A stretch of DNA of 55,284 nt from Patescibacteria group bacterium (GCA_038063195.1 JBBTVO010000003.1:1-55284), one strand, 5' to 3'. Shown: positions 10,015 through 37,287, counted from the stretch's first letter. Notes: generated by a model not told the origin, from the sequence alone. Numbers and translations are program-made.

Positions 10015-10058
10015 AGATACGGGAAAGGCTTGATTTTCCACCAATCCTCTTGCTTCTT

Positions 10059-12392: not shown

Positions 12393-12959
12393 ATGGTCAT
12401 TTTTTTGATAATTCCGCTGTTTAATATAATTAATCAGCTTTACAGTTTCCAAACAAAACCTATAATTGAAGCTCCGCAAGAGAAAAAATACTGGCTCATG
12501 CTTTTGAGAAAATCAAATATAGAAAAACTTTACCAAGGAATTCCGGGAGATGAAAACAAAAGCCAGCTTATCAAGACTTTTAAAGTCAAAACCGGAATTC
12601 CCGGAAAGCGGCCGACACCGCTGCCACAGCTTTTGGGAAGGCAGTATTGGATTATCACCGATAAATTTGATGCCAGCGAATATCCCGAAACCGCGCCGTA
12701 TTTTCTCAAACTTGATGTTCCCGTAACTGATGAATATCCATACGGACCGCAGCCTTATGAAGAATGTCTTGGAGGACAATGTAATTGGGAGCTCCCCGGA
12801 TATTTCGGCTTACACGGAATTAATAATGATATGACAAGATTGTCTCCTGAAAACGAAGGAAGCTCGGGCTGTATAAGGCATTCGGATGAGGATATCATAT
12901 ATCTTTACAACCTTATAAATCCGAAAGATAATGTAAGGTATTATATAAAAGACATATGA
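12393..12959 (+). CDS. L,D-transpeptidase (YkuD) domain protein
   Basis: GLHGINNDMTRLSPENEGSSGCIRHSDEDI (H..S.GC.R). The start was moved to the ATG at 12393 to remove overlap with the convergent 11246..12349 gene. Confidence 0.7.
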   Translation: MVIFLIIPLFNIINQLYSFQTKPIIEAPQEKKYWLMLLRKSNIEKLYQGIPGDENKSQLIKTFKVKTGIPGKRPTPLPQLLGRQYWIITDKFDASEYPETAPYFLKLDVPVTDEYPYGPQPYEECLGGQCNWELPGYFGLHGINNDMTRLSPENEGSSGCIRHSDEDIIYLYNLINPKDNVRYYIKDI

Positions 12960-14062
12960 CAGAGGAAAACATTAATCCTGAAATGTTATCGGATAAGCCA
13001 AAGAGAAAAAAGCAAATAATAATTGCTGTTATTGTTCTATTGTTAGTATTGATGGCTGGAGGCATGGTTTTAGTTTTGAGACAGGAAGAGAACAGTAAGC
13101 TAAGTTTGGTCAGCCCAAGTTTAGAAACTAAGAAAACCGCAAGCATAAGCCCGACTCCATTTCCTTTTGAAGAACTGACTATTCCATACCTAAGAAACAG
13201 AGAATATAAAAGTCATTTGGGAGATCTTAAGAAAGTTTCTGAGAATTCCAACTACACCTCTTATCTTGTAAGCTATAATTCAGACGGTCTGAAAATTAAT
13301 GGACAATTGACTATCCCATCGGGTACTCAGCCGATAGAAGGTTTCCCTGCGATTGTATTTGTCCACGGATATATTCCGCCAAGCCAATACCAGACTTTAG
13401 TAAATTACACTTCTTATGTTGATTATCTTGCGAGCAATGGTTTTGTAGTTTTCAAGATTGATCTGCGCGGTCATGATGATTCCGAGGGAGAATCGGGAGG
13501 GGCATATTATTCATCCGATTATATTATCGATACACTTAATGCATATTCTGCTTTGCAAAGTTCAGATTTTGTAAATCCCGATAAAGTCGGGCTTTGGGGG
13601 CACAGCATGGCAGGGAATGTCGTATCGCGTGCACTTGCCGGTAAACCCGAAATTCCTGCAATTGTTATATGGGCGGGAGCTGTCTATACATATGAAGATT
13701 TTGCGCAGTTTAGTATTGAGGATAATTCTTACCGCCCGCCTAGTCAGAGCTCTGAGGTCAGACGAAAACGAAATGAACTTTTCGCAAAATACGGGCAGTT
13801 TGATCCCAATTCAGATTTCTGGAAACAGGTACCGATGACAAATTATCTTACTGAAATAAAAGGCGCAATTCAGATAAATCATGCGGTTGATGACAATGTA
13901 GTTGATATAAAATACAGCAGGAATTTTACGAGTATTTTGGATAAGACAACGATTGTCCATGAGCTAAATGAGTATCCAAACGGCGGGCACAATTTATCAG
14001 GCGGTACTTTTAATCAGGCAATGCAAAACACAGTGGAATTTTTTGATAAATATTTAAAATAG
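12956..14062 (+). CDS. alpha/beta hydrolase, S9 prolyl-oligopeptidase/dienelactone-hydrolase-like
   Basis: GLWGHSMAGNV nucleophile elbow (GxSxG), N-terminal TM segment, C-terminal H in GGHNL. Confidence 0.7.
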   Translation: MTEENINPEMLSDKPKRKKQIIIAVIVLLLVLMAGGMVLVLRQEENSKLSLVSPSLETKKTASISPTPFPFEELTIPYLRNREYKSHLGDLKKVSENSNYTSYLVSYNSDGLKINGQLTIPSGTQPIEGFPAIVFVHGYIPPSQYQTLVNYTSYVDYLASNGFVVFKIDLRGHDDSEGESGGAYYSSDYIIDTLNAYSALQSSDFVNPDKVGLWGHSMAGNVVSRALAGKPEIPAIVIWAGAVYTYEDFAQFSIEDNSYRPPSQSSEVRRKRNELFAKYGQFDPNSDFWKQVPMTNYLTEIKGAIQINHAVDDNVVDIKYSRNFTSILDKTTIVHELNEYPNGGHNLSGGTFNQAMQNTVEFFDKYLK

Positions 14063-14086
14063 CTTCCGCTTGATTTCCCGTCCCAA
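14040..14086 (+). repeat. direct repeat copy A: hydrolase 3' end plus 19-bp junction motif
   Basis: TTTTTGATAAATATTTAAAATAGCTTCCGCTTGATTTCCCGTCCCAA, about 42/47 identical to 18592..18639. Confidence 0.75.
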
Positions 14087-14182
14087 CAAATTTATCCCAG
14101 ATCTAAGTACTAATTAATAGATGAGTGGAGTGGAGCAGTACGGAGCGATTTATTCCATCATTCGCGCGAACGATAGATCGAA

Positions 14183-14461
14183 TTATCTGAGTTGTTCCAG
14201 TTTTTTTAAGAATCTAAGAGTAGATGCTCCTTTATCCGATAACTTGTGGCGGACATTTTTATTCTGATTTCTCTTGAGAATAAGTCCTGCGATTGCCATG
14301 CGTCTTATGTGTTGGCTTGCGTTCTTAAGATCAATTTTAACCTTTTGCGCAATTTCACTGACTGAAAGTTCAGGTTCCTTCTCAAGAAGTTCCAATATTT
14401 GAATTCTTCTATGATTTGAGTACCCCTTAACAATTCTTTCTAAATGTCTGGTCTTTAGCAT
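14183..14461 (-). CDS. ArsR/SmtB-like winged-helix regulator
   Basis: HRRIQILELLEKEPELSVSEIAQKVKIDLKNASQHIRRMAIAGLI. Confidence 0.7.
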   Translation of the reverse strand: MLKTRHLERIVKGYSNHRRIQILELLEKEPELSVSEIAQKVKIDLKNASQHIRRMAIAGLILKRNQNKNVRHKLSDKGASTLRFLKKLEQLR

Positions 14462-14593
14462 AAATCTATAGTATCATATTCCATCATTCGATAGAATAAT
14501 GGAATGAAAATCTGAAATTGTTGGTTTGAATGATATGTTTTTTATTAAAAATTAAGAATATGATTGGAAAATTTGGTGGGAGGGAAGGGAAGT

Positions 14594-14612
14594 GCTTGAT
14601 TTTCCGCCCCAA
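14594..14612 (+). repeat. 19-bp junction motif GCTTGATTTTCCGCCCCAA
   Basis: Other same-orientation copies: 10028-10044 (variant), 14068-14086, 14990-15000 (partial), 18620-18639, 19058-19076, 19575-19593. Confidence 0.75.
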
Positions 14613-14632
14613 AATGATACAATCCACTCGCT

Positions 14633-14986
14633 ATGAAAGACAGAAAAAGATTCGATTATTCATCTCGTATTTTAAGCATGTATGGGATACCGGCGGACTC
14701 CGATGACGTACTTAGGAAAGTGATAGATGGAGAAATTAGATACGAAGACCTGCCTGTGGATGATGATACTGAAGGAAGAAAAGGATATTTTTTCGAAGAC
14801 CAAGCTAAATTTGTTGCTTCGCATGAAGGGCAAGAAATATTGTGTCAGGTTTTAGATAACGAACCGTGTCGTCAAGACAAATGTCCGATGTTTTTGCCAG
14901 TAGGAGCAACTAGGCCGATGGAAAATCGTTATGGCCAGCCACTTTGCGGAGAGTTCAGGTTTGTTTTTCAAAAAACTAAACAATAG
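14633..14986 (+). CDS. hypothetical protein
   Basis: 117-aa ORF with its own TGATACAAT promoter 9 nt upstream; no recognisable family. Confidence 0.45.
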   Translation: MKDRKRFDYSSRILSMYGIPADSDDVLRKVIDGEIRYEDLPVDDDTEGRKGYFFEDQAKFVASHEGQEILCQVLDNEPCRQDKCPMFLPVGATRPMENRYGQPLCGEFRFVFQKTKQ

Positions 14987-15027
14987 AGAGCTTGATTTAT
15001 TAAGAAAAACCGCGCATAATTAGCCTC

Positions 15028-15828
15028 ATGAATATTTCTAAAAAAATAGATTTTCCATTGGTCACTGCTTTGATTGCAATCTTGCCAATTTATGGCTATT
15101 TCATTGCATATGTATTTGAATCAACATATCTTGGACTTTTAGGAATTCCCTCGGATTTTGTTCAAATCAGGCTCAACTCCATATTCTTAATAAGTGTAAT
15201 CGTGATACTTTTATCGACTTTCATATTATATCTAGCGTTTTTTTTCAGACCACTTTTGAAGAAGCATAAAAATAACTTCCTGTTGTATCCAATAATATTT
15301 TATGGATTGCTATTATCGGTTATTGCGGGGATAACCTATATATTTATGCCTAATTTCATAAAAAATGTTACACCCGTCATCGCAATTTGCTCAGTTTTAT
15401 TTGTTCTTAACGAGTTTATGTACCCACTATTAAAATACAAGACGTTTAAAAATTATAAGGAGCATGTCATTGAATTGAGAAACACTAAAACGAATTCGGA
15501 CAAATCCCAGTTGAATTCGGATAATGCCTACTTGAATCTAGGCTTATTTTCACTTGTAATATTAGTTGCAACATATGGGATAGTTATTGCATTTGCTGGA
15601 GCATATATAGTAAATTTCAATACATATTTAACTTTTGAAAAAAATGGCATAAAGTATGCACTATTGAGAAATGAAAATAACGAAAAAATCGCAATTGAAT
15701 ATAAAAACGATCGTCTTATTCCTGGAAAAATCCTTATTTTTACTTCAGATTCATTAGGCTTAGTATCAAGAAAATTAAAATTGGAAGAAGTTAGCAGAAG
15801 GAAACTTTTTCCATTAATTAGAGATTAG
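15028..15828 (+). CDS. hypothetical multi-pass membrane protein
   Basis: Several hydrophobic helices; TTGATT-17-CATAAT 7 nt upstream of the ATG. Confidence 0.5.
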   Translation: MNISKKIDFPLVTALIAILPIYGYFIAYVFESTYLGLLGIPSDFVQIRLNSIFLISVIVILLSTFILYLAFFFRPLLKKHKNNFLLYPIIFYGLLLSVIAGITYIFMPNFIKNVTPVIAICSVLFVLNEFMYPLLKYKTFKNYKEHVIELRNTKTNSDKSQLNSDNAYLNLGLFSLVILVATYGIVIAFAGAYIVNFNTYLTFEKNGIKYALLRNENNEKIAIEYKNDRLIPGKILIFTSDSLGLVSRKLKLEEVSRRKLFPLIRD

Positions 15829-15832
15829 AATT

Positions 15833-15841
15833 TGTTATAAT
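15833..15841 (+). promoter_or_regulatory. extended -10 TGTTATAAT, 6 nt before the ATG at 15848
   Basis: Read directly. Confidence 0.55.
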
Positions 15842-15847
15842 TTCCTC

Positions 15848-16339
15848 ATGTTGCTAATTCTTACCGGACCTGCTGGGGCAGGAAAAAATACAATAGGCCA
15901 CATCATCGCACAGAAAAGAGAGAAGTGTGCGGTTATTGATGTTGATGACGTAAGACACATGGCGATAAAACCTCATATAGCTCCATGGTATGGAGAGGCA
16001 GGGCAAAAACAAGTTAGGCTTGGGGTTAAAAACGCATGTGCTCTTGCTCATAATTTTATAGAAGAGGGTTTTGATGTAATCATTCTTGACGTATTAACAG
16101 ATGAGACCGGTAGAGCTTATAGAGAGAGTTTAAAAGATTTTAATCCGAAAATTATTATGCTTCTTCCAACTCTTGAGAAAGTCAAGGAAAGAAATAGCTC
16201 CCGTTCTTATAATCTTGCGGAGGATCGTGTTATTAGTTTACACCAAGAACAGAGTGAATTTAAGGATTTTGATGAGAGAATAGATAATTCCAATATTTCG
16301 CCAGAAGAAACCGCAGAAAAAATCCTCCGCGTGGTATAA
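15848..16339 (+). CDS. P-loop kinase (AAA_33 / zeta-toxin-like fold)
   Basis: Walker A LTGPAGAGKNT, Walker-B-like VIILDV; TGTTATAAT 6 nt upstream of the ATG. Confidence 0.6.
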   Translation: MLLILTGPAGAGKNTIGHIIAQKREKCAVIDVDDVRHMAIKPHIAPWYGEAGQKQVRLGVKNACALAHNFIEEGFDVIILDVLTDETGRAYRESLKDFNPKIIMLLPTLEKVKERNSSRSYNLAEDRVISLHQEQSEFKDFDERIDNSNISPEETAEKILRVV

Positions 16340-16352
16340 TTTCCCGTCGTTT

Positions 16353-16862
16353 TTATTGAGCTGTTGATGGCTGTGGATTTGTTAACTGAGGTTTCCATCT
16401 TTCTGCCCATCTATTGATTTCAGTTGGATTATTTCTTATCATAGGAGGGCGAGAAAATAAATCATTTACAGCAAGTCTTATAGACCAAGCTCTATTTTCA
16501 GCACCTTGATAGTGTTCTTGAACAAATCCATCTATAGATCTTTCTAGAATATTAATATCAGTTCTTAATTTTGTTGTTTCAGGGGTATCGACTTTAGTTT
16601 TATAAGTTTCTTTAGTGTAAAGAAATTTTCCGTATTTTGTTTCTTTAGATTTATCCAACTCTATGTAAAATAATTTTAGTCCAAGTAGATGGTGAAGAAG
16701 TTTTACGTCATGCCCCCGAAGCGAAAGTAATTGATCAAACTTTCTTTTGATTGCATATTTTCGTCCTTTTTCTTGAGATTTTCTCATAAGTCTTTCCTCT
16801 TCAGAGACAGGCTCTCTTGCCTTATCGGATTTCCTTCTTAGTCCCTCAAAAATATTTCTCAT
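16353..16862 (-). CDS. hypothetical protein
   Basis: 169-aa ORF, no recognisable family. Confidence 0.4.
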   Translation of the reverse strand: MRNIFEGLRRKSDKAREPVSEEERLMRKSQEKGRKYAIKRKFDQLLSLRGHDVKLLHHLLGLKLFYIELDKSKETKYGKFLYTKETYKTKVDTPETTKLRTDINILERSIDGFVQEHYQGAENRAWSIRLAVNDLFSRPPMIRNNPTEINRWAERWKPQLTNPQPSTAQ

Positions 16863-16924
16863 AAGATGGAAGTATACTTTAAAAACTCAAAATTAACAAT
16901 CGGCGTGGTATAATTTCCTCGGCT

Positions 16925-17140
16925 TTAGACTGCCGGAAGGATTCTTTTATAATTCCCAGCTCCGTAGTTAAGGCGCATTTTTTTAGTATCTGTTTTGAGC
17001 CAACTTCTCTCTCTTTTCGATTTATATTCGTCCTCTCTTACATAACAATGACCTTGGAATTTAATCTTTCCATTCTTCTCTTCAAAATAAATCTCAGCAA
17101 GCCTGCTGTTAATAATTGCAAAACACCAGCTCATAAGCAA
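16925..17140 (-). CDS. hypothetical small protein
   Basis: 71-aa ORF only. Confidence 0.3.
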   Translation of the reverse strand: MLMSWCFAIINSRLAEIYFEEKNGKIKFQGHCYVREDEYKSKRERSWLKTDTKKMRLNYGAGNYKRILPAV

Positions 17141-17154
17141 GAATCTGCTTTGTA

Positions 17155-17163
17155 TGATATAAT
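17155..17163 (+). promoter_or_regulatory. extended -10 TGATATAAT, 6 nt before the ATG at 17170
   Basis: Read directly. Confidence 0.55.
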
Positions 17164-17169
17164 CATATC

Positions 17170-17391
17170 ATGAATAAAATAACTGTAGATCCGAAAATTT
17201 TGGCAGGAAAACCAGTAGTAGCAGGTACAAGAATTCCAGTCTATCTCATTTTAAATCTCTTAGCCAGCGGATATAATTTCGATAAAATTATAGAAGCTTA
17301 TCCCCGTTTAACCCGAGCAGATATAGAAACAGCGATTAGATACTCTGAAGACCGCATGAAAAGAGTAGAGGTGCGAAGCCTCAGTAAATAA
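17170..17391 (+). CDS. DUF433 antitoxin-like protein
   Basis: ITVDPKILAGKPVVAGTRIPVYLILNLLASG. Confidence 0.8.
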   Translation: MNKITVDPKILAGKPVVAGTRIPVYLILNLLASGYNFDKIIEAYPRLTRADIETAIRYSEDRMKRVEVRSLSK

Positions 17392-17393
17392 AA

Positions 17394-17765
17394 GTGCTTA
17401 AATTACTGCTTGACGCTAATCTTTCTCCCAAAACCCGCAAGTACCTAGAGAAAAAGTTTCACTTCAATGTCATTGATCTAGCTACCGAAAATAAACATGG
17501 AATGACTGATGAACAAGTAGTCAAACTTGCCAAGAAAGAAAAGAGAGTAATTATTACTTTTGATCTTGATTTTGGGGAGATATACTACTTTAGCGAAAGA
17601 GGAAAAGTGGGTATAATAGTTCTTCGGCTTGAAGATCAAAGAGTAGAGTCGGCAAATAAAGTTTTAAATAAATTCTTTCAAAACGAATCTAAGAATGTAG
17701 ATTTAGAAAAATCGCTCGTGGTAATTGATGAAAGCAGGATACGGATAGTGCCTAATATCAATTAA
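17394..17765 (+). CDS. DUF5615 (Mut7-C/PIN-like) toxin-like protein
   Basis: LLLDANLSPKT...VIITFDLDFGE; GTG start 2 nt after the DUF433 stop. Confidence 0.75.
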   Translation: MLKLLLDANLSPKTRKYLEKKFHFNVIDLATENKHGMTDEQVVKLAKKEKRVIITFDLDFGEIYYFSERGKVGIIVLRLEDQRVESANKVLNKFFQNESKNVDLEKSLVVIDESRIRIVPNIN

Positions 17766-17865
17766 TAAAACTTTGATATAATTTCCTCAACGATGAATCT
17801 ATCAATTGGGGTGGTGCGAACACAACCCGACATTCTCATCCTGAGTGGAGCCAGAGAATTGTAAC

Positions 17866-17894
17866 TTGACAAAACCATTATTTGTACTTACAAT
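17866..17894 (+). promoter_or_regulatory. TTGACA-17-TACAAT promoter of mazEF, 9 nt before the ATG
   Basis: Read directly. Confidence 0.6.
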
Positions 17895-17903
17895 GTAATT
17901 ACT

Positions 17904-18143
17904 ATGATAACCACACTAATTGCGATAGGGAATTCTCGCGGGATACGTATACCAAAGCCCTTGATTGCTGAAAGCGGTATTTCCGATCAAGTTGAATTGC
18001 AGGTAAAAAAGGGTGAGATACGAATTATTTCAGCGCCTACGAAGAATAGGTCTGCGTCTGCTGCATTACTCCTATCTGAAAAAACACTCGGTGCTGATTG
18101 GAATCGGCCGGAAGAGGAAACCGCATGGGCAAGTTTGCAGTAG
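17904..18143 (+). CDS. mazE: MazE/AbrB (SpoVT) type antitoxin
   Basis: IAIGNSRGIRIPKPLIAESG swapped-hairpin motif; TTGACA-17-TACAAT upstream. Confidence 0.75.
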   Translation: MITTLIAIGNSRGIRIPKPLIAESGISDQVELQVKKGEIRIISAPTKNRSASAALLLSEKTLGADWNRPEEETAWASLQ

Positions 18144-18460
18144 GCAGTATTGTTCTCGTTACATTTCCATTTTCAGATTTGAAAGGCCAGAAAGTACGAC
18201 CGGCGCTTGTTTTGGCAAACGTTGAATTTAATAACCTCATTCTGTGTCAAATTACTTCAAAGCCATATTCAAGCAAAATATCAATTCGTCTTACATCGAC
18301 TGATTTTGCAACAGGTGGTTTACCAATTGTCAGCTACGTACGGCCGGATAAGCTGTTTACGGCTGATACGACTATTATAAAAAAGACTGTTGGGAAGTTA
18401 TCTAGTAAAACTACAGATAAAGTTTTAAAAAATATCCGCGCACTATTTAAATCTTCATAA
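18125..18460 (+). CDS. mazF: MazF/PemK family endoribonuclease toxin
   Basis: GSIVLVTFPFSDLKGQKVRPALVLA; ATG at 18125 overlaps the mazE end. Confidence 0.8.
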   Translation: MGKFAVGSIVLVTFPFSDLKGQKVRPALVLANVEFNNLILCQITSKPYSSKISIRLTSTDFATGGLPIVSYVRPDKLFTADTTIIKKTVGKLSSKTTDKVLKNIRALFKSS

Positions 18461-18466
18461 AGTCAT

Positions 18467-18586
18467 TTACAGAGCGTACCCTCTTTCTGGCAGCTCCTCA
18501 TTTCCAATTTTTTTAGCCATTTCTTCTACGAGCCTAACCATAACTGGATAGCCAACTTGTCTATAATCTCCAAACCTCTCATTCAT
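18467..18586 (-). CDS. possible 39-aa small ORF (MNERFGDYRQVGYPVMVRLVEEMAKKIGNEELPERGYAL)
   Basis: Open frame below the track length cut-off, in otherwise unexplained DNA. Confidence 0.2.
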   Translation of the reverse strand: MNERFGDYRQVGYPVMVRLVEEMAKKIGNEELPERGYAL

Positions 18587-18591
18587 AATTC

Positions 18592-18639
18592 TTTTTGACA
18601 AATATTTAAAATAGCTTCTGTTTGATTTTCCGCCCCCAA
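18592..18639 (+). repeat. direct repeat copy B (non-coding relic of the hydrolase 3' end plus junction motif)
   Basis: TTTTTGACAAATATTTAAAATAGCTTCTGTTTGATTTTCCGCCCCCAA. Confidence 0.75.
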
Positions 18640-18693
18640 ATTAATCTTATAGTTTGACTTTAATCGGGATTTTTGGTATATTTTTAACTTACT

Positions 18694-19050
18694 ATGGAAT
18701 TTGAGTCCGATTCGGAAACCGGTAATTCAGAAAATGTAAATGACTATTCGCGATTGGGTGAACGGGAAGAAAACGCCGTAAGAATAGCGACAAGAGGTTT
18801 GGCAAAGTGGTTCTCTGAGGATGAAAAACCTCCGCCTATGAAAGTAGTAATTACACAGGAAAACCCGTTTGATTTTAGGTCATTCGTGGCCGTATTGCGC
18901 GAAGATGGGATAGATGTTATGGGATCTCTTAAGGAAGTCAGTGATGGTGTCTTGGTATTTCAGCCTAATTTATGTGATTCTGAGACGGAAGAATCAATAC
19001 TGGGTGAAACAATAGTAATCCCCGAGGGTCTTGAAAAATATTTCAAGTAA
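18694..19050 (+). CDS. hypothetical acidic protein
   Basis: 118-aa ORF with TTGACT-17-TATATT promoter. Confidence 0.45.
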   Translation: MEFESDSETGNSENVNDYSRLGEREENAVRIATRGLAKWFSEDEKPPPMKVVITQENPFDFRSFVAVLREDGIDVMGSLKEVSDGVLVFQPNLCDSETEESILGETIVIPEGLEKYFK

Positions 19051-19057
19051 TTTCATA

Positions 19058-19076
19058 GCTTGATTTCCCGCCTCAA
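19058..19076 (+). repeat. 19-bp junction motif copy (GCTTGATTTCCCGCCTCAA)
   Basis: Lies 8 nt after the stop of 18694..19050. Confidence 0.7.
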
Positions 19077-19124
19077 CCTTAGATTGTTGACTATTTATTT
19101 TTTATATTTTATAATCTGTCCACG

Positions 19125-19562
19125 ATGACTACTGAGACAAGACCTGAAGCAAATGTAACAGAAATTCCGTATGCCGATTTTGAAATAGGGATGATAAAAG
19201 ATTTAATGCCCGCTTGGGATGGTGCGTCTCAAGATTTAGGTAAAGGTTTGCAAAGTCACTTTTTCTACAAAGTCGGAGATGACGTTACGCGAATAACTCT
19301 AGATTTTTATCCTCATCAGAAAGATGCTTGGCTTAGAGAAAATCCCGTCATAGCTACAGGACAAAGAAGAGAAGTACTGGCTGAAGATTATCACCATCTT
19401 ACAGAAATTTCAACAGTGGTAATTTATGGAGACGAAGGTAGGGTTACTTTTTTCGCTAAGGATAAAAGAAGTTTTCTTGAGATTTCAAATGGAGGCAGAG
19501 CTTTAGTTTTACAACAGCATCGGAATAGAACTGATACTACTACAAGAATAAACCTTCCGTAA
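19125..19562 (+). CDS. hypothetical protein
   Basis: 145-aa ORF with TTGACT-17-TATAAT promoter 9 nt upstream. Confidence 0.45.
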   Translation: MTTETRPEANVTEIPYADFEIGMIKDLMPAWDGASQDLGKGLQSHFFYKVGDDVTRITLDFYPHQKDAWLRENPVIATGQRREVLAEDYHHLTEISTVVIYGDEGRVTFFAKDKRSFLEISNGGRALVLQQHRNRTDTTTRINLP

Positions 19563-19574
19563 ATCGAACAAACT

Positions 19575-19593
19575 CCTTGATTTTCCGCCCCAA
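19575..19593 (+). repeat. 19-bp junction motif copy (CCTTGATTTTCCGCCCCAA)
   Basis: Lies 13 nt after the stop of 19125..19562 and is followed by GTGATATAATTTCCTCATG. Confidence 0.7.
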
Positions 19594-19601
19594 CCAGCGC
19601 G

Positions 19602-19610
19602 TGATATAAT
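19602..19610 (+). promoter_or_regulatory. extended -10 TGATATAAT, 6 nt before the ATG at 19617
   Basis: Read directly. Confidence 0.55.
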
Positions 19611-19616
19611 TTCCTC

Positions 19617-19841
19617 ATGCCAGTTGTATTTTCGGATCATGCTAAATTTCAACTTAAAGAGCGTAATATATCTCAAAAAAGAATGCTTGAAGTAGTGATG
19701 AATCCAACCGAAACAAGTCAAAGTTTCAAGAATAGGCGATTGTGGAGAAAATCGTTTGGTGGTAAAATATTACAAGCAGTAACCATAACAGAAGGTTCGA
19801 AAATAACTGTCATCAGCGGTTATTACTTAAGAAAAAAATAA
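19617..19841 (+). CDS. DUF4258 toxin-like protein
   Basis: SDHAKFQLKERNISQKRMLEVV motif; paired with DUF2283. Confidence 0.65.
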   Translation: MPVVFSDHAKFQLKERNISQKRMLEVVMNPTETSQSFKNRRLWRKSFGGKILQAVTITEGSKITVISGYYLRKK

Positions 19842-19842
19842 T

Positions 19843-20049
19843 ATGAAAATACATTACGATCCAAAAATAGACGCTGTTTATTTTAAATTAGCAAAGGGTA
19901 AATACGACGCGAGTCGTGAGATATCCAGTTCTATTATAGTGGATGAAGACAAGAATGGTAAAGTTTTGGGAATTGAGATTTTGGATGCAACAAAAAATAT
20001 AAATGCCTTTAATCCAAAAAACCCAAGGTCTTCCTTAAGCACTTCTTAA
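19843..20049 (+). CDS. DUF2283 antitoxin-like protein
   Basis: MKIHYDPKIDAVYFKL...VLGIEILDA. Confidence 0.7.
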   Translation: MKIHYDPKIDAVYFKLAKGKYDASREISSSIIVDEDKNGKVLGIEILDATKNINAFNPKNPRSSLSTS

Positions 20050-20063
20050 TCTCCTTGCTTGTC

Positions 20064-20107
20064 CTGAGTTTACCGAAGGGCTTCTATTGCACTTCGGCTC
20101 CGCTCAG
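20064..20107. terminator. GC-rich compound hairpin CTGAG-TTTA-CCGAAG...CTTCGG-CTCCG-CTCAG between convergent genes
   Basis: Nested inverted repeats; may be a terminator or a REP-like element. Confidence 0.4.
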
Positions 20108-20125
20108 TACATGCCACCGTGGTTA

Positions 20126-20395
20126 TTACTTGAATTGTACGTGAAGAGATGTGCCGAGGGCATTTGCCATTTTTCTAAGAAATGAAAGAGAGGGGAGTGA
20201 TGATGCACTTTCAGCGCGCGATATTACCGATTGGCGGGTTTTAAGTTTTTTCGCAAGCTGAGCTTGTGTCAGGCCGCTCCTGATTCTTCCTCGAATAATC
20301 TCGCGTGCCACCTCATATTCCAGACGAGTTTCTTCCAAGGCTTTTCTAAATTCAGGGTCTTTCAGGAGAATTTTTTTGTGAGTTTCCCAATCCAT
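20126..20395 (-). CDS. XRE-family HTH (HigA-like) protein
   Basis: GLTQAQLAKKLKTRQSVISRAES. Confidence 0.75.
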   Translation of the reverse strand: MDWETHKKILLKDPEFRKALEETRLEYEVAREIIRGRIRSGLTQAQLAKKLKTRQSVISRAESASSLPSLSFLRKMANALGTSLHVQFK

Positions 20396-20419
20396 ATAAA
20401 ATAATTATATCACAATTTT

Positions 20420-21355
20420 GTGATAATGCAATCTTACTTCATAATTTCCTGCTTCTTTGCTATACTGAGTAAAGTGCAGAAAAATTCCCATTACCAGACT
20501 CTTAAAGAGAAGTGGTCGCAGAAGCACGAGGCGGCCCGGAAAAGATTCGAAGAAAAGCATAAGGAAACTCTCGCGTTTCTCATAGACCGAATTCCCGCTA
20601 AAGATAAGATTGCAAGTGGCGCGGCAAGCCTCATAATGCTTTCGACCAATCTTAACCCAGCGACTGCATTTGCTCAGGCAGCTACAAAAACACCACCGCT
20701 GGTTATTGAAGAAAATCGTGCAAGCAGAATTGAAAAATTACTTTCGGATTTAAAAACAGTAGTGCCTTCGGAGATGAGAAGTTTAACTCCTGAGGAAGAG
20801 GCGAGTACTTCGGCAATTCTTTCAAGAAATTTCAATATGGAAGTAGTTCCGGATATTAACGGACTGCGATTGAATCGAACTTACGGGATGATGGGGGCTG
20901 AACAGCACCTCATGCGCTATCCGGGAGACACAATGTACGGACATTTTGATAGTGAAAGTGAGAATTTTTATTCTTCGGGAATGGCTCCCGGACGCGGGGC
21001 GTGGGGATATTTCGCAAATTCGAAGGAGGAGTTGACGGTTGAGGATAGAGAGCGGGAGAAATGGTATATTGCGGTTCAGAGCTTTCTCGCAGTAGATTAC
21101 AACTCAAGGCCTTCTGAGTACAGGGATTTTTTCAAATATAGAAAAATGCTCGTTGTAAATCCTAAGACCGGGCAGGCAATAGTAAGTGATATTGCAGATG
21201 CGGGGCCTGCGGTCTGGACAGGAAAGCATCTGGGAGGCTCACCTGAAGTAATGTATTACTTGGGTATTCATCAGGGACCGCGCAAAGGCGGAGTTTTATA
21301 CTTTTTCATCAATGATCCCAATGATACAATTCCCTTAGGCCCTATCAATCTATGA
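20420..21355 (+). CDS. secreted RlpA/DPBB-like (double-psi beta-barrel) protein; start uncertain
   Basis: VNPKTGQAIVSDIADAGPAVWTGKHLGGSPEVMYYLG resembles the RlpA-type DPBB domain. An in-frame GTG at 20474 lies 7 nt after TATACT. Confidence 0.5.
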   Translation: MIMQSYFIISCFFAILSKVQKNSHYQTLKEKWSQKHEAARKRFEEKHKETLAFLIDRIPAKDKIASGAASLIMLSTNLNPATAFAQAATKTPPLVIEENRASRIEKLLSDLKTVVPSEMRSLTPEEEASTSAILSRNFNMEVVPDINGLRLNRTYGMMGAEQHLMRYPGDTMYGHFDSESENFYSSGMAPGRGAWGYFANSKEELTVEDREREKWYIAVQSFLAVDYNSRPSEYRDFFKYRKMLVVNPKTGQAIVSDIADAGPAVWTGKHLGGSPEVMYYLGIHQGPRKGGVLYFFINDPNDTIPLGPINL

Positions 21356-30958: not shown

Positions 30959-30989
30959 GTTGCTCCTTAAGCGAAGCTTAAGGAGCAAC
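30959..30989. terminator. perfect 14-bp stem hairpin GTTGCTCCTTAAGC-GAA-GCTTAAGGAGCAAC between convergent genes
   Basis: Overlaps the last four codons and the stop of the giant ORF; no clean U-tract. Confidence 0.5.
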
Positions 30990-33900
30990 TTCCTGATATA
31001 TCGTTTTTATTTGCTTAATACTCTCCGGAGCGTTGAGTACGAAGTCAGGCCGTTCCTTGATAGTAAATACCGGACAAAAAGCATTGTTTGTGCAAAGAGT
31101 TCTGTTGTTTATGAATTGACCGCCGGTTTTCCCCGCATTTACAATTACGGTCCCTGCCATATTAAGTCTGAAGTCTGGGGTTACGCAGCTATCATTGTTG
31201 TTGTCTATTATGAAATCGCTATCCGCAGAATAATATCCTTCAACCTGTGTCGCGGCCGAATTCCACGCAGTACCTATGCTTTTATCTATGTGTATATCAC
31301 CCCTGACGATAAACGTGAGAGTAGAGGTTTTGGGGACAAAAATTTTAGCGGCTATGGTAAGATTTCCATCAATCAGAATTATTACCTTTGTGCTTGCGGC
31401 AAGAGTATAATCACTGCTGTTTACAATTTTGACATCACTGCCAGCAGTATATACACCGCTTGCAAGCGCCGGTAATGTACAGCTCAGCAAAGTGCACGAT
31501 AAGTTTGTAGGAGTTATCCCTGATTGCCTAACTCTTCCCAATACATAAGCATACGAGGTGGTGTAAATTCCTTTTGACGGGGCATAAATGTCTTGATATT
31601 CTGCTGAGCCGACTTTCCAATTTGCAGGAGGTGCGGATGCAGAGCCTGCAGGACCAAAATATGCAGGTGAGTCTCCGGTAAAGATTATTCCCGGTGATCC
31701 GCCAGCGCCATTAACAGAAGTAAAGGCGTCGCCGAAAGGAGCAGTGCATACGCCGGGAGCAGCAGGAGGAACTTTAGCAGTGCTTGGTATTACATTGTCA
31801 AGTCCGCTGTCAAATCTTATATCAGTTCCGCCGGATTGAAACCATGCGGATGAAGTCTTAAATCCGAAATTAAGATTTGTAATATTTCCGTCTGCGTGGC
31901 ATGATGCTCCGGCAGATGTTCCTGTTGCTCCGGGGCTACAGCTTGGCCCGACAGTTACGATGTGTGTCAGAGAAGGAGGGAAAGATACCTGATAGCCTGA
32001 AGGAGGACTGCCGAGATAAGTTAACAAATATTTCCCCGCAGGGACACTGATACTTCCGGTTCCGGGATAATATCCTCCAACTGAAGCATTAACTACGCCG
32101 CTTATAGACACAGTTTCGTTTCTGTAGAAGACACTGTAAGACCCGCTCAGGTTGGGCTCTCCGACATCGTATTGGCCATTACTGTTGGCATCAGCCACTT
32201 GCTGTCCTGAGATGGTGTAGGGTGGCGAGAACACTACAGTGACTGTAGTAGGAGCATTTAAGATAACTGTGCATGTAGTACCTGCTCCGGAGCATCCGCC
32301 GCCTGACCAGGACTCAATAAGCGATCCGGGGTCTGGAGTTGCGGTAAGAGTTATCGATGTACCCGGACCATATGACTCTGAGCAATCAGCTCCGCAAGAA
32401 ATCCCGGGAGGACTGGATACAACAGTTCCTGTACCCGGACCGGGCTTGCTAATGGTAAGTGTGTACAGAGGGATGATACCAAAGTTTACTCCATATACGT
32501 CAGCAGTAGTTACCGCCACGGTTCTGGGATTTACATAATTGAGGTCTGTACCAGTATAACTATAGACATAGCCGGCGGGCGCAGTGATTTCGATAGTGTG
32601 ACTTTGATTACCGAGAAGATAGTTGTATGTGAAATCTCCGCCGGTTAGGGTTTTGTCGGAAAATGCAGCGCCATTAAGTGACATGCTAAGAGTGCTTCCT
32701 GTATAATTTGCTTCTGCCCCGTTTTTGATTCCGTCGCCGTTACTATCTAGATAAATTGCCCCAGAGATATTGTATGTAGGCCGTAATCCTATATCCCGCC
32801 TTACCGATGCATTTGTAATATTTATGGTCGCAGGCGTTTTCCAGCCGTAACTGATAGGAGAGCTTGGTTGAATATTGGTAAGAGCAAGCCAGTTAAGAGG
32901 GAAGGTATAATTAGCGAGAGAATTAGAATAAACAATGGAATAGTTGGTGCTTGCGCTTACACTTAGACTGTAATTTCCATTTGCATCTGGTGGAGTTCTT
33001 GCTATTACGCTACTGGAACTGGGAAATTGACAAGTTGAAGTACAAAGCCAAATAGCTGATCCAACCTCGGAGCCAGGTATAAAAGGCTCTCCCGTGTCTT
33101 TCGTTCCGTTTCCATTGTAATCAACAAATACAGTGCCATATATAGCAAGGGGTGGGGGTGTTGGGGTGGGGGTTAGGCCAGACACGTTAACATCCGTATC
33201 GGTTGCTCCAGACTCACAAGTGCGTCCGTCAGACAAATCTGCAGTTCCCCATACTGCTGTTGCGCCGCTTGCTACAGCCGTGACTGCCGTGGTATAAATC
33301 GAGGTTGTATCGGAAGCGGGATTAACAGTTGCTATAGAGGTATTATATGAACCAAAACGCATCCGTGTAATTGTTGCAGATCCAAGTCCTGAAGTCACGC
33401 TAGCTGTAACTGTTCCGGCAGCTCCTCCTACAGTTAGGTTAAGTACAGGCGGCGAAGTCGTTACCGCGCATGACCCGGCAGCAGGCGTGGGAGTAGGGGC
33501 GGGGATGGCGCAGGCGCCTGTTCCGGTATTACAAACTTGTCCGCTTGGGCATCCGCATTTAACGCAGTCATTAACTGGAGGATTGTCTTTTATTTTACAA
33601 TCCAGCGGCTGACCGCCGGCTACACAAAAGCCTACGGGAGTACGAGCAGGGTCCGTGCAAGTTCCGGGAGTAGTGGGGCAGGCGGGGAAGGTGGTGATTA
33701 TATTTTCCAGAAATTTTAAAATCCACTGAGCGTCTTTGGCTGTGACATCGCTTCCAGCAGATTGAACACTAGGGGAACCTCCCGGATCGACCACATCCGC
33801 TCTTTCTATCTGAGATGTGGTAAGAGTTCCGCCTCCGATATAATCTAGTATTTTGTAGGAGTCCAGCGTAGATATCTTTCCGTCGCCGTCCACATCTCCG

Positions 33901-35162
33901 TACTGGTAAGGCGCGCCCAGAGGGTTGGTGCCTGAGCCGGTGAGAGTTGAGGGGACAGGACATGAGGAAGTTTTGGGATCATAGACTGTAACTTGCATAC
34001 GACTGCTAGCTCCGCAATCCGTCCATGGAGAAGGGATTTGGAAAGGATTGCCAGTGCACTTGCTTCCGGAGTTGCTATGTGCATTGACAACCACCCAATA
34101 AGTACCGGGAGTACTGAACGCCTTTGAAGCAGAAAATGATTGAGACGACCCAAAAAGTGTGTAGGGAGAACCTGTAAATGCAGTCCAACTCTCACCTGAG
34201 GTTGGCGACGAATACATTTCTCCCTTTGATAGACTTTGAAAATTAGGATCATTTGCTGTGCCTGTAAAGCTTACCGTTTGACCAGTTGTTGCATAAGAGC
34301 GACCTGTTATTGACGCAGTAACAGGAGGAGGGGAAAGTCCAAAATCAGAAACTTTTGTGTTGCCGCCCGCGGTGACGTTTACGCTATAGGAAGTTGGTGT
34401 GGTATTTCCCCAGCCGCCCATCGTGGGCATATCTACCCTGACAGTGTAAGTCCCTACTGGAAGCTGCCCTGACTGATAGTAAGGGTTATTTGGATCACAA
34501 CTGTTAGCCCAGATACTTATATTGCCCGGATCAGCAATAGCCTGGACACCTGCTATATTATGTAGCCCCGAAGGACAGTTTTCGGTATTTTGCATGAATG
34601 GTTCACCCAATTGCCAGACGCTATCTTTGTTCTGATCATCAAAAATATAACCCCACAAACTTCCGGTTGACGGGGGAGGGATAGAAGGGCAACTATTACC
34701 AGTTGAATCAGTTGCGGGAACGTAGTTAACTCCAGTTCCCAAGTTATTTCCCGGATTGTAAGTTACTGTATCTCTCCAAGCTAATAGACCGAGCGCAGAA
34801 TTATTTATAAATGGATCAACTATAGGATCTATGCATTGCGTCCACCACAGCATTTGAGGTGGGCCTGTAAAATATTCATTAAGTTGATATGCAACCCCTA
34901 TGTCATTTCCTGAACAAGCAGAATTATTGAATACAGGACGGGTTATTTTACGCCTATATGCACCGCTTGAGCCGTCAGAGTAAAGCCATTTATAAGCAAC
35001 CTCCCAGTCAGTTCCCGTGTTGGTTTCACAAAACGTAACCTCAGTGTCATAGAATCCAGGATATGCTTCTGCGTGACCTACATCTAAAGTAAGATAAGCA
35101 CAGAAAAATAATATTAAAATTAACGAACTTAATATCGTATTTTTTATACGCCAAATAATCAT
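30978..35162 (-). CDS. giant secreted surface/adhesin-like protein (1394 aa)
   Basis: Signal-like N-terminus. Dockerin/EF-hand-like DVDGDGKISTLDSYKILDY. Repeated SdrD-B/Cna-B-like motifs (VFVDYNGNGTKDTGEP, IYLDSNGDGIKNGAE, DANSNGQYDVGEP). InlB-B-repeat-like GTGTVVSSPPGISCGADCSESY...TLTATPDPG. G/T/S/P-rich. Confidence 0.8.
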   Translation of the reverse strand: MIIWRIKNTILSSLILILFFCAYLTLDVGHAEAYPGFYDTEVTFCETNTGTDWEVAYKWLYSDGSSGAYRRKITRPVFNNSACSGNDIGVAYQLNEYFTGPPQMLWWTQCIDPIVDPFINNSALGLLAWRDTVTYNPGNNLGTGVNYVPATDSTGNSCPSIPPPSTGSLWGYIFDDQNKDSVWQLGEPFMQNTENCPSGLHNIAGVQAIADPGNISIWANSCDPNNPYYQSGQLPVGTYTVRVDMPTMGGWGNTTPTSYSVNVTAGGNTKVSDFGLSPPPVTASITGRSYATTGQTVSFTGTANDPNFQSLSKGEMYSSPTSGESWTAFTGSPYTLFGSSQSFSASKAFSTPGTYWVVVNAHSNSGSKCTGNPFQIPSPWTDCGASSRMQVTVYDPKTSSCPVPSTLTGSGTNPLGAPYQYGDVDGDGKISTLDSYKILDYIGGGTLTTSQIERADVVDPGGSPSVQSAGSDVTAKDAQWILKFLENIITTFPACPTTPGTCTDPARTPVGFCVAGGQPLDCKIKDNPPVNDCVKCGCPSGQVCNTGTGACAIPAPTPTPAAGSCAVTTSPPVLNLTVGGAAGTVTASVTSGLGSATITRMRFGSYNTSIATVNPASDTTSIYTTAVTAVASGATAVWGTADLSDGRTCESGATDTDVNVSGLTPTPTPPPLAIYGTVFVDYNGNGTKDTGEPFIPGSEVGSAIWLCTSTCQFPSSSSVIARTPPDANGNYSLSVSASTNYSIVYSNSLANYTFPLNWLALTNIQPSSPISYGWKTPATINITNASVRRDIGLRPTYNISGAIYLDSNGDGIKNGAEANYTGSTLSMSLNGAAFSDKTLTGGDFTYNYLLGNQSHTIEITAPAGYVYSYTGTDLNYVNPRTVAVTTADVYGVNFGIIPLYTLTISKPGPGTGTVVSSPPGISCGADCSESYGPGTSITLTATPDPGSLIESWSGGGCSGAGTTCTVILNAPTTVTVVFSPPYTISGQQVADANSNGQYDVGEPNLSGSYSVFYRNETVSISGVVNASVGGYYPGTGSISVPAGKYLLTYLGSPPSGYQVSFPPSLTHIVTVGPSCSPGATGTSAGASCHADGNITNLNFGFKTSSAWFQSGGTDIRFDSGLDNVIPSTAKVPPAAPGVCTAPFGDAFTSVNGAGGSPGIIFTGDSPAYFGPAGSASAPPANWKVGSAEYQDIYAPSKGIYTTSYAYVLGRVRQSGITPTNLSCTLLSCTLPALASGVYTAGSDVKIVNSSDYTLAASTKVIILIDGNLTIAAKIFVPKTSTLTFIVRGDIHIDKSIGTAWNSAATQVEGYYSADSDFIIDNNNDSCVTPDFRLNMAGTVIVNAGKTGGQFINNRTLCTNNAFCPVFTIKERPDFVLNAPESIKQIKTIYQEVAP

Positions 35163-36651: not shown

Positions 36652-36675
36652 TTATATCTTATAGTTATTGTCAAG
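36652..36675 (+). repeat. junction repeat type R1 (TTATATCTTATAGTTATTGTCAAG, variant)
   Basis: Shares the TATAGT-TTGTCAAG core with 8 other copies. Confidence 0.7.
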
Positions 36676-36717
36676 TGGCTTTTTTGATGGATCGGATTAT
36701 AGCACTTGTATTTATCC

Positions 36718-36746
36718 TTGTCAAGGATAAAGGCTTCTGGTATGAT
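36718..36746 (+). promoter_or_regulatory. TTGTCA-17-TATGAT, 6 nt before the hicB ATG (duplicated at 38400-38428)
   Basis: Read directly. Confidence 0.6.
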
Positions 36747-36752
36747 ACATTC

Positions 36753-37007
36753 ATGGAGAAGAAAATCTTAAATTATAGAGTGGTTATTACACCAGATGAA
36801 AGGACCGGCAGGGGAAAGCCCTGTTACACTGCGTATGTGCCTCTCTTAGGTATTGCAACAGACGGAGATACGATTGAGGAGGCATTGATGAATGTGCAAG
36901 ATGCAATACTGGTTTATGTTAGGTCATTAAGAGAAGATGGGCAAGAGATTCCCCTAGAGTCAATTAATGGAGAATTTATTACAACCGCAAGCGTAGAATT
37001 ATCATAA
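36753..37007 (+). CDS. hicB: HicB-family antitoxin (copy 1)
   Basis: LNYRVVITPDERTGRGKPCYTAYVPLLGIATDGDTIEEAL; ATG 6 nt after TATGAT. Confidence 0.8.
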   Translation: MEKKILNYRVVITPDERTGRGKPCYTAYVPLLGIATDGDTIEEALMNVQDAILVYVRSLREDGQEIPLESINGEFITTASVELS

Positions 37008-37027
37008 AGAAAACACCTTAAGGCTAT

Positions 37028-37261
37028 ATGCCTAAATTGCCACAAATAAAAACAAAGATAATTTTGCGTGTGCTTCAAAAAGAAGGATTTATGAAAAGAC
37101 CAGGCAAAGGGAGCCATATTGTGCTTGCGCATTCAGATGGAAGAAGAACAGTTGTTCCCTTTCATAATAAACCACTTGCAAAGGGGACACTTCGGGCGAT
37201 TCTTAGACAGGCAAATATTTCCTTAGAGGAATTTCTACATCTCTTAAAAGAAAAGAGTTGA
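37028..37261 (+). CDS. hicA: HicA-family mRNA interferase toxin (copy 1)
   Basis: ILRVLQKEGFMKRPGKGSHIVLAHSDGRRTVVPFHNKPLAKGTLRAILRQ. Confidence 0.85.
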   Translation: MPKLPQIKTKIILRVLQKEGFMKRPGKGSHIVLAHSDGRRTVVPFHNKPLAKGTLRAILRQANISLEEFLHLLKEKS

Positions 37262-37287
37262 GCCAATTGCTAGAAGAGGCAGAACAG

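Follow-up and report, generated by a model that had tools for sequence, protein, structure and literature searches.

A strain- and species-variable island of small leaderless gene modules joined by conserved boxes in a Candidatus Levybacteria genome

We analyzed a stretch of 55,284 nucleotides from a Patescibacteria group bacterium (GCA_038063195.1 JBBTVO010000003.1:1-55284), the whole of which is called the window below and in which all positions are counted from the first letter. The host belongs to Candidatus Levybacteria, within the candidate phyla radiation (CPR), and comes from Hainich groundwater, identical proteins being encoded on Hainich 0.1-um metagenome contigs. Between two core genes of this window lies a 6.4-kb hypervariable island of accessory genes (14063-20455), which runs from the stop codon of an alpha/beta-hydrolase gene to the -10 box of the next core gene (o311), and which consists of small autonomous modules: toxin-antitoxin (TA) pairs, small regulators, a kinase and orphan genes. 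We are highly confident that the island varies between strains and species, that its mini-modules are autonomous and leaderless, and that the conserved boxes joining them are specific to one group of Levybacteria. With moderate confidence, we further propose that one of these boxes, a 19-bp element that we call the L-box, serves as the joint for the insertion or exchange of modules, and that at times it also acts as a -35 promoter element.

A conserved 19-bp box recurs between small unrelated modules

Pfam assignments bear out the run of small, unrelated genes that a first-pass annotation of this sequence had proposed downstream of the alpha/beta hydrolase, with an ArsR/MarR-type winged helix-turn-helix (wHTH) regulator, a P-loop kinase, DUF433/DUF5615, MazE/PemK, DUF4258/DUF2283 and a terminal HTH_3. 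Island units carry their own TATAAT-N6-9-ATG promoters. The reversed open reading frames (ORFs) described in that annotation exist; counting the ArsR gene, four units lie on the minus strand.

The L-box (GCTTGATTTYCCGYCYCAA; as a 19-mer GCTTGATTTYCCGCCYCAA, consensus GCTTGATTTTCCRCCCCAA) matches the window 5 times with at most 2 mismatches, always on the plus strand, at 14068, 14594, 18620, 19058 and 19575. These copies had been listed before and are confirmed here: shuffled sequences give an expectation of 0.09 and not one of 100 shuffles reached 5, while allowing up to 3 mismatches adds no further copy in the whole 55,284 bases. The partial copy at 14990 and the variant at 10028 are likewise present, the former with merely its first 9 nt (GCTTGATTT) and the latter with 14 of 19 positions matching. 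Consecutive L-boxes are spaced 526, 4026, 438 and 517 nt apart, with genes in the intervals. In the window, the gap from the preceding stop codon to the L-box measures 3-12 nt, not the 8-20 nt first reported. About half of the unit boundaries in the window have no L-box, so that the earlier picture of most plus-strand units starting behind the motif holds for some junctions only. The following L-box features are used below.

10028-10046, plus strand: L-box variant (14/19 matching) in the PF1765-like/GSDH intergenic region
14594-14612, plus strand: L-box 2, which supplies the -35 TTGATT, then 16 nt, TACAAT, 9 nt and the ATG of ORF 14633-14986
18694-19076, plus strand: orphan 118-aa gene (o118; ORF 18694-19050) and L-box 4 (19058-19076), 7 nt past its stop
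19125-19593, plus strand: orphan 145-aa gene and L-box 5 (19575-19593), 12 nt past its stop

We built an L-box profile from 23 instances at 10 loci, namely 8 different arrays, a strain allele (L006) and the 10028 variant (other genomes and loci are given by our own L-numbers). Its information content is 0.6-2.0 bits per position, mostly at least 1.2, over exactly 19 nt, and mostly at most 0.5 bits in the flanks. In other words, the element is conserved far beyond what is seen for a -35 hexamer. L-boxes are co-oriented within every array compared, and 14-15 of the 23 sit 3-29 nt (mostly at most 18) past the stop codon of a co-oriented gene, convergent cases included. At position 13, the five main window copies and both L169 copies have G; L009, L099, L023, L049, L175, L282 and the 10028 variant have A. 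No dyad symmetry or fold was found in the L-box. When 101-nt segments around the five L-boxes were folded on both strands, 8 of the 10 gave z-scores from -0.24 to +0.84, and the two exceptions, both around 19058, reflect a hairpin in the preceding coding end and not the L-box.

Junctions between 15829 and 17900 bear a second conserved box in place of the L-box. This R-box (GCGTGRTATAATTTCCTC; GCGTGRTATAATTTCC, or GTGGTATAATTTCCTC-ATG in the full junction) has copies at 16329, 16903 and 19599 and weaker ones at 15830 and 17771, and recurs in L099, L169 and L282. L-box and R-box are specific to one Levybacteria group. A scan for the L-box across one genome per species (185,579 species genomes) returned 101 stretches, against about 70 expected by chance on our own estimate, and nearly all were single matches in unrelated phyla. 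Four stretches belong to Levybacteria reference genomes, one each in L023, L049, L055 and L099, and these genomes have 1-4 co-oriented copies once mismatches are allowed. The first-pass annotation had named a promoter element spread over the whole genome as the case that would speak against it. Such a signal, or one of the uptake type, is rejected by this single stretch per reference genome and by the lack of other copies in the 55 kb. Metagenome matches that share the flanking context of the window or duplicate known Levybacteria loci are L127, L144, L148, L184, L197, L169, L175 and L180.

Several other identities for the box were tried and rejected. No tRNA/tmRNA fragment or known RNA family was found, and Rfam gave no match at the gathering score and only two sub-threshold ones, neither overlapping a box; folding gave nothing attC-like or REP-like (repetitive extragenic palindrome). 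The box is not a terminator hairpin, and intrinsic terminators are not in excess in the island. For a phage or plasmid origin, BLAST of the whole island against phage and plasmid collections returned no match, and the scan of viral contigs for the L-box gave unrelated matches only. A CRISPR array, with regular spacers of 25-50 nt, is ruled out because the box intervals are irregular and contain genes. ArsR is an unlikely binder of the L-box: its module has a palindrome, TTCCATCATTCGATAGAATAATGGAA, over the module's own promoter, relatives of ArsR in more distant CPR (L272-L281, L283-L284) have no box with them, and boxes occur in loci in which no ArsR gene was seen (L023, L049, L175). We found no description of the L-box motif or of Levybacteria cassette arrays in the literature.

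Strain and species differences break at the boxes

The evidence for a joint comes from the comparison of alleles and arrays, for which the following features of the window are needed.

12956-14062, plus strand: alpha/beta-hydrolase gene (Pfam Hydrolase_4/Abhydrolase_1/Peptidase_S9)
14147-14508, minus strand: ArsR module, with the gene at 14183-14461 (Pfam HTH_24/HTH_5, NCBIfam ArsR/SmtB)
14611-17840, unstranded: strain-variable 3.2-kb block with a 117-aa ORF, a 266-aa membrane protein, a P-loop kinase, two reversed ORFs and DUF433/DUF5615
17904-18460, plus strand: MazE/MazF (PemK) toxin-antitoxin pair with its own TTGACA-17-TACAAT promoter

The hydrolase gene, a conserved core gene, anchors the island on the left. 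At E <= 1e-20 it has 2,513 homologues; of the best 120, those with a named source come mainly from Levybacteria and other Microgenomates. At this left border, the first L-box lies 5 nt past the hydrolase stop. In a 99%-identical strain (L006/L007), the order is hydrolase, ArsR (minus strand), MazEF and onward, without the 3.2-kb block. In a global alignment, the window and L006 agree as far as 14610 and once more from 17841 onward; between these two points, L006 has 29 nt that are unrelated or only weakly related. The left breakpoint is therefore the 3' edge of the L-box at 14594. At the right breakpoint lie a TATAATTTCCTC promoter and a REP-like CCTGAGTGGAG; a 23-codon mini-ORF with REP-like CATCCTGAGTGGAGCCAGAGAAT occupies 17795-17866, at this same right edge. 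Among all contigs encoding ArsR or o118 proteins (Hainich), the window and L006/L007 represent the only two alleles. In addition, a variant contig from run X7 joins 14508 straight to 14987-15028 and continues into a different ORF, and the Logan contigs show short-sided joints at two places (14508>14987, 15028>16902), besides numerous loose ends, all of which indicate related variants. The gene content of relatives thus differs, with breakpoints at the box, and is not the identical content that would have told against the earlier proposal.

Between species, the same interval is either vacant or differently filled. In L009, whose hydrolase is 80% identical, the o311 homologue begins 27 nt past the hydrolase stop, and the gap is free of boxes, with only TATACT-N7-GTG; this locus is a putative cross-species empty site for the whole island. 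In L008, the interval between hydrolase and o311 is filled with unrelated cargo. Taken together, the empty L009 and the other cargo of L008 make this interval a hotspot.

Homologous modules (ArsR, kinase, o118, o169r and DUF4258/DUF2283) occupy different chromosomal sites from one species to another, again with co-oriented L-boxes: between hydrolase and o311 in the window, between PF1765 and GSDH in L009, upstream of GSDH in L099 and after o112 in L169. A YafQ-type TA with an L-box sits between PNPase and Lon in L023, L049 and L175. Throughout, the orientation of a module relative to the boxes is constant across sites, and the homology blocks that BLASTN detects between arrays have L- or R-boxes at their limits. 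The kinase block shared with L099 runs from R-box to R-box (15833-16344); the o118 homologue in L099 (49% aa identity) has L-boxes on both sides, with blocks at 18607-18699 and 18993-19078; and homology of DUF4258/DUF2283 with L009, L055 and L099 begins exactly at the R-box at 19599. The L169 homologue of the reversed ORF 16353-16862 is flanked by L-boxes in place of R-boxes. Defense-type cargo also lies between these boxes in other arrays, with AbiV/HEPN and a nucleoside 2-deoxyribosyltransferase-like protein (L099 6728-7471; L055 5161-6105).

The ArsR module behaves like an independent mobile unit. It is 87% identical at the nucleotide level over exactly 362 nt in L009 (2839-3200) and L169 (2802-3163), genomes whose core proteins are only 57-80% identical to those of the window, and it has direct TTCCATCATTCG repeats at its edges (14153, 14479) and a palindromic putative operator over its own promoter. 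Most of the 341 CPR homologues of this module are on very short contigs. The window and L282 share an identical L-box and next 19 nt, and their ArsR proteins are 97% identical; to the left of that box stands the hydrolase gene in the window and a YafQ-like toxin gene in L282. With such close similarity on the right, the change of left neighbor at the 5' edge of the box is a real breakpoint and not decay alone. Every pairing of a left context (hydrolase 3' end or YafQ-type toxin) with a right context (ArsR or o118 module) is represented (window 14068, window 18620, L009/L282 and L099), and the box is all that the four have in common. The spacer holding the 10028 variant, between PF1765 and GSDH and with TGGTATAAT-N6-ATG, looks like an unoccupied site; at the same spot L009 has an L-box variant followed by a 6.5-kb island of modules. 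In L023 and L049, array-end sequence directly follows the L-box, and we call such boxes 'empty'.

In the reading that we favor, the L-box would be placed a few nt past the end of a module, with all copies of an array in the same direction. New DNA would enter at the 3' edge of the box, the point that separates the L half of a split promoter from its R half, and an incoming module would bring a further L-box, giving an array of the form anchor-L-module-L-module...R-gene. The exchange would probably fall to a recombinase whose gene lies elsewhere in the genome, or to recombination at the short conserved boxes themselves, and the L-box would double as a -35 element where it lies 16-18 nt before a -10 hexamer. 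Such a joint accounts for every copy, including the co-orientation, the sharp edges, the breakpoints at either edge, the four-way combination and the 'empty' boxes. We infer that the L-box is a recombination site, as we do the direction of the events (insertion or deletion) and the involvement of any enzyme.

Predicted promoter function of the junction

Part of the junction resembles a promoter, as seen in the following features.

14633-14986, plus strand: 117-aa ORF, with its ATG behind the L-box 2 promoter
14990-15027, plus strand: promoter module with half an L-box (GCTTGATTT), TTGATT-17 nt-CATAAT, 7 nt, ATG
16329-16346, plus strand: R-box GCGTGGTATAATTTCCCG, with the kinase stop codon inside; together with 16903-16920 it flanks reversed ORF 16353-16862
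16903-16920, plus strand: R-box GCGTGGTATAATTTCCTC, with no plus-strand gene behind it
19575-19619, plus strand: complete junction of L-box, CCAGCGC, R-box GCGTGATATAATTTCCTC and the ATG of DUF4258

The fullest form of the junction, GCTTGATTTTCCRCCCCAA-CCAGCG-CATAAT-TTCCCTC-ATG, occurs in L099, L055, L049 and at window 19575, and the composite of L-box, CCAGCGC and R-box is also found in L009, L055 (twice) and L099. Read as TTGATT, 17 nt, CATAAT, 7 nt and ATG, this full junction is a predicted leaderless sigma-70 promoter. A purely regulatory explanation builds on this: the L-box would supply the -35 element, and a spacer containing an operator, to a portable leaderless 'mobile promoter'; its ligands would be RNA polymerase and an unlinked repressor or activator that co-regulates the island genes. 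The modules would then be shuffled by ordinary homologous or illegitimate recombination, and the boxes facing reversed genes would be young relics. We consider this possible, if unlikely. In its favor, a promoter scanner made calls at 14596 and 14992, and the L-box itself is the -35 element at 14594 and 14990 (TTGATT, 16-17 nt, TACAAT/CATAAT), a geometry also found in the consensus junctions of L099, L055, L049 and L006. At these two window positions the first-pass annotation, which had placed the motif upstream of the unit's own promoter, needs correction. The half L-box at 14990 retains the -35, the spacing and the -10 but not the spacer. TATAAT-N6-9-ATG/GTG precedes core and island genes alike (e.g. 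10081, 17158, 21720, 25779 on the minus strand, and 29459) and is the general promoter type of the genome, which suggests that leaderless mRNAs would be the rule in the host organism. Moreover, the reuse of near-identical promoters before unrelated genes is documented (PMC3575422).

Against this stands the behavior of the remaining copies. The 19 nt are sharp-edged and conserved far above the -10 that should accompany them: a usable -10 at 16-18 nt is found for only 7-8 of the 19 L-boxes examined and is missing in 11-12. Neither 14068, 18620 and 19058 nor the boxes facing reversed genes have the promoter geometry, and those at 18620 and 19058 precede separate full promoters (TTGACT, 17 nt, TATATT/TATAAT), as the first-pass annotation had it for the motif in general. 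The orientation of the box follows the array and not the neighboring gene, about 8 of the 19 facing a reversed gene. Five L-boxes lie between convergent genes (window 14068, L009 2800, L023, L049 and L055 1663). The first L-box of the window is among them, between the hydrolase (plus) and ArsR (minus), and therefore has no promoter to serve; even so, the box beside the ArsR module is kept in the window, L009 and L282 despite indels round about. Promoter function alone does not readily explain these copies.

A duplicated hydrolase 3' end brackets 4.5 kb

Two copies of the 3' end of the hydrolase gene, each followed by an L-box, are present in the window.

14040-14086, plus strand: 47-nt repeat, copy 1, in which the 3'-terminal 23 nt of the hydrolase gene are followed by a 5-nt linker and then by L-box 1 (14068-14086)
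18592-18639, plus strand: 47-nt repeat, copy 2, a non-coding copy of the hydrolase 3' end and L-box 3 (18620-18638)

A repeat finder aligned 14040-14084 with 18592-18636 as an ungapped direct repeat with 89% identity (40/45), 4.5 kb apart. The hydrolase end ..KYLK-stop is native, given that the L008 and L009 homologues end alike, and 18595-18618 is consequently a truly non-coding copy of the end of the gene, in agreement with what had been noticed before. A third, weaker copy (19031-19054, 79%) represents the genuine 3' end of a gene, ORF 18694-19050, whose product ends in ..KYFK-stop. KY[LF]K-stop (with the AAATATTT palindrome) is thus the ending of two unrelated families, that of the hydrolase and that of o118, in each case with an L-box some 20 nt further on (window 14043-14062, 18595-18618 and 19031-19050; L099 about 7545-7525), which could be chance or a target preference.

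The first-pass annotation had compared this bracket to attL and attR. In its full form, this explanation holds that 14087-18591 is a single integrated remnant of an integrase-less, cis-mobilizable element, which entered at the hydrolase 3' end by site-specific recombination across an identity segment of about 47 bp and regenerated the gene end, with attL at 14040-14086, attR at 18592-18639 and the other boxes as scars of earlier integrations of the same kind. It overlaps with the idea of a joint, and we hold it as a tentative minority view. The direct repeat of the target end stands, and its inclusion of 23-24 nt of genuine hydrolase coding sequence speaks for integration, given that exchange at boxes only cannot yield a hydrolase copy and that a bracket is needed to explain the copied 24 nt. 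The segment also holds typical island cargo, with an ArsR module that moves between genomes and MazEF. However, no integrase lies inside or nearby (the bracketed genes are ArsR, orphan ORFs, the kinase, DUF433/DUF5615 and MazEF), and the allele expected from an exact loss of 4.5 kb, in which hydrolase and box lead to o118 (18640 onward), was not found among all contigs encoding ArsR or o118 proteins. The empty site that does exist, L009, is without the whole island, and the indel between strains is a different, 3.2-kb sub-block. No excision joint was seen in the assembled contigs of eight runs, the ArsR module travels without a hydrolase fragment in L009, L169 and L282, the five mismatches of the repeat indicate an old event, and a tandem duplication followed by deletion between boxes would look alike.

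Points against a joint, and less probable explanations

A number of observations weigh against the L-box as a site of insertion or exchange. Pfam found no recombinase domain in the directly scanned ORFs of the island and window. The L-box has neither dyad nor fold, unlike most recombinase core sites, and it is missing at the right end of the sole strain-level indel. No excision, box-to-box junction or alternative cassette order was detected in eight runs, in assembled contigs, which hide rare variants, and in the four runs of study P1 the array is one invariant contig of about 29.6 kb. Most comparisons are between species in which non-functional intergenic DNA is randomized, so that homology ending at a box may reflect conservation of a functional site and not crossover. 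Simple box-by-box exchange leaves the copying of 24 hydrolase nt unexplained. Finally, the consensus junction is a perfectly spaced promoter, and the promoter parts retained by the half L-box at 14990, without the spacer, point to selection for a promoter there.

The earlier statement that no integrase is present agrees with our searches in a wider set of genes. No recombinase appears in the Pfam lists of called genes covering roughly window 3-27 kb and 31-50 kb, and no integrase among the called genes of the arrays with annotated contigs. A recombinase hidden among the cassettes was considered and rejected, in that Pfam, NCBIfam and PADLOC gave nothing for the orphan ORFs and no orphan is common to all arrays. 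The sole transposase seen near any box is an IS200-like Y1 (HUH) transposase in L023 (3695-4372), 200 nt from the single L-box of that genome.

We also considered the box as a 3'-end element, that is, a terminator, insulator or processing signal that keeps modules transcriptionally separate, for example as a C-rich, G-poor Rho entry site or a binding site for a roadblock protein. The position of 14-15 of the 23 boxes shortly past a co-oriented stop codon would suit such a role, as would the agreement of box orientation with the direction of transcription of the array, the C-rich and G-poor 3' half of the box (TTTTCCRCCCCAACC) and the ordinary number of intrinsic terminators in the island (5, against 4.4 expected), none of which stands at a plus-strand gene end. 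Eight boxes, however, come after the start of a reversed gene instead of its end, such strong sequence conservation is not a property of Rho entry sites, there is no structure and no Rfam family, and the indel breakpoints at the box would be left unexplained; this makes a 3'-end element improbable. A chimeric metagenome assembly stitched at a short repeat can be discounted almost entirely: many Logan and ENA contigs do break within the array, but the same order is found in independent ENA, NCBI and Logan contigs from at least 10 samples and three studies, and contigs of about 29.6 kb run through it uninterrupted at 20-44x word depth.

Other features of the window

The remaining features of the island are the following.

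16353-16862, 16925-17140 and 18467-18601, minus strand: the units on this strand besides ArsR
19617-20049, plus strand: DUF4258/DUF2283 pair (Pfam), with homologues in the L009, L055 and L099 arrays
20057-20114, unstranded: stable hairpin at the right end of the array, between convergent genes (-24.4 kcal/mol, z -2.5)
20126-20395, minus strand: HTH_3 (XRE-type) regulator (Pfam), the last unit of the island
20440-20468, plus strand: R-box remnant CATAATTTCC-TGCTTCTTTGC, which forms the island's right border and adjoins the -10 (TATACT) of the downstream core gene (o311)

The CGAAGGGCTTCTnTTG part of the hairpin is found directly after the L-box in L023 and L049, and ahead of R-boxes in L099. 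An 88%-identical fragment of the HTH_3 regulator adjoins the L-box in L023. In L009, only aacacctcatttgt stands ahead of the same TATACT-N7-GTG as that of the downstream core gene in the window. The R-box serves a coding role as well: the last codons and stop of the kinase (..V V stop) are encoded by the next R-box (GCG TGG TAT AA), here and at about 6166-6190 in L099, so that the promoter box doubles as the kinase coding end at window 16329-16346 and in L099.

Elsewhere in the window, a second island (36660-42355, minus strand) contains nine CTTGACAAAGACTATA junction repeats, five of them continuing with ..CTAATCCCACCTCCGAGGTGG, and between these repeats lie small TA and defense genes (AbiEii, HicAB, DUF433/DUF5615, PIN). 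L202 and L203 differ by an extra unit of HicAB and PIN, and this second island is therefore also strain-variable. A gene for a 1394-aa repeat-rich surface-type protein (Flg_new_2, SdrD_B) occupies 30978-35162 on the minus strand, and has a GC content of 0.45-0.51, compared with about 0.38 in the rest of the window.

Discussion

CPR/Patescibacteria have small, streamlined genomes, and the ways in which accessory and defense genes are acquired and lost in them are poorly understood. The locus described here is a hotspot marked in sequence, where single-gene modules differ between co-occurring strains and recur at other sites in other species. If the L-box is a recombination site, the island would amount to a cassette system resembling integrons but using another kind of site and lacking a linked integrase, and the L-box and R-box would together be a search key for the flexible gene pool of this lineage. 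If the L-box is only regulatory, it would be a natural example of the reuse of a promoter module across unrelated genes and a ready-made leaderless expression signal for uncultured organisms. More speculatively, and with some doubt on our part, Levybacteria (perhaps with other CPR) may possess an undescribed gene-cassette platform, with the L-box as a 19-bp, non-palindromic, double-strand equivalent of attC/attI, an unlinked recombinase and cassettes equipped with their own leaderless promoters. Such promoters would mean that a cassette is expressed wherever it lands. The second island (36.6-42.4 kb) would then be a sister system, suggesting island-specific junction sites as a general way to hold and trade TA and defense genes.

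Some known systems share single traits with the island. Phage morons are autonomous single-gene transcription units inserted between genes, and the modules here are likewise one gene or gene pair with their own promoter, which leave their neighbors undisturbed. Unlike morons, they are chromosomal and without phage context, share a junction sequence and have no flanking terminators. The sfx sites of the R64 shufflon, 19-bp asymmetric sites at the 3' ends of gene segments that are used by the tyrosine recombinase Rci, set a precedent for a short asymmetric 19-bp recombination site at 3' ends. The sfx sites, however, are inverted and drive inversion of pilV segments with rci adjacent, whereas the L-boxes are direct repeats with no linked recombinase and no sequence similarity to sfx. 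Putative mobile promoters, in which the same promoter stands before non-homologous genes (PMC3575422), are matched by the leaderless promoter formed by L-box and R-box, found before non-homologous genes within a genome and across species. Here, in contrast, the L half is often uncoupled from any -10 or gene, is over-conserved, and has an orientation tied to the array and not to the gene.

Further parallels come from integrative islands that target the 3' ends of genes, such as those of the tRNA/tmRNA type, tycheposon arrays and integrase-less cis-mobilizable elements, in which the insert is bracketed by a direct repeat of the target 3' end; successive insertions at one site can build arrays, and integrase-less remnants exist. 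A direct repeat with the hydrolase 3' end brackets the insert of the window in the same way. The differences are that the target here is the end of a protein-coding gene plus a box that also occurs at unrelated loci, that neither integrase nor excision product was detected, and that the units are single genes of 0.4-1 kb, as opposed to islands of many kb.

The island works most like a chromosomal integron array or a cluster of attC sites lacking integrase (CALIN), yet it lacks each defining integron feature that could be tested. No IntI is found nearby; the site is 19 nt, non-palindromic and unfolded, compared with a folded attC of 57-141 nt with R''-L''/L'-R' boxes; the units have their own promoters and four are reversed, compared with mostly promoterless, co-oriented cassettes expressed from Pc; and the site is missing from some junctions, with a second box, of promoter type (the R-box), also marking junctions. 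Common to both are arrays of small unrelated genes, often TA genes; a short conserved site at the 3' ends of the units, always in the same direction; uniformity of these sites within a genome; strain-dependent content; and cassettes that recur in different arrays. We describe the locus as a hotspot cassette island with an unusual junction site.

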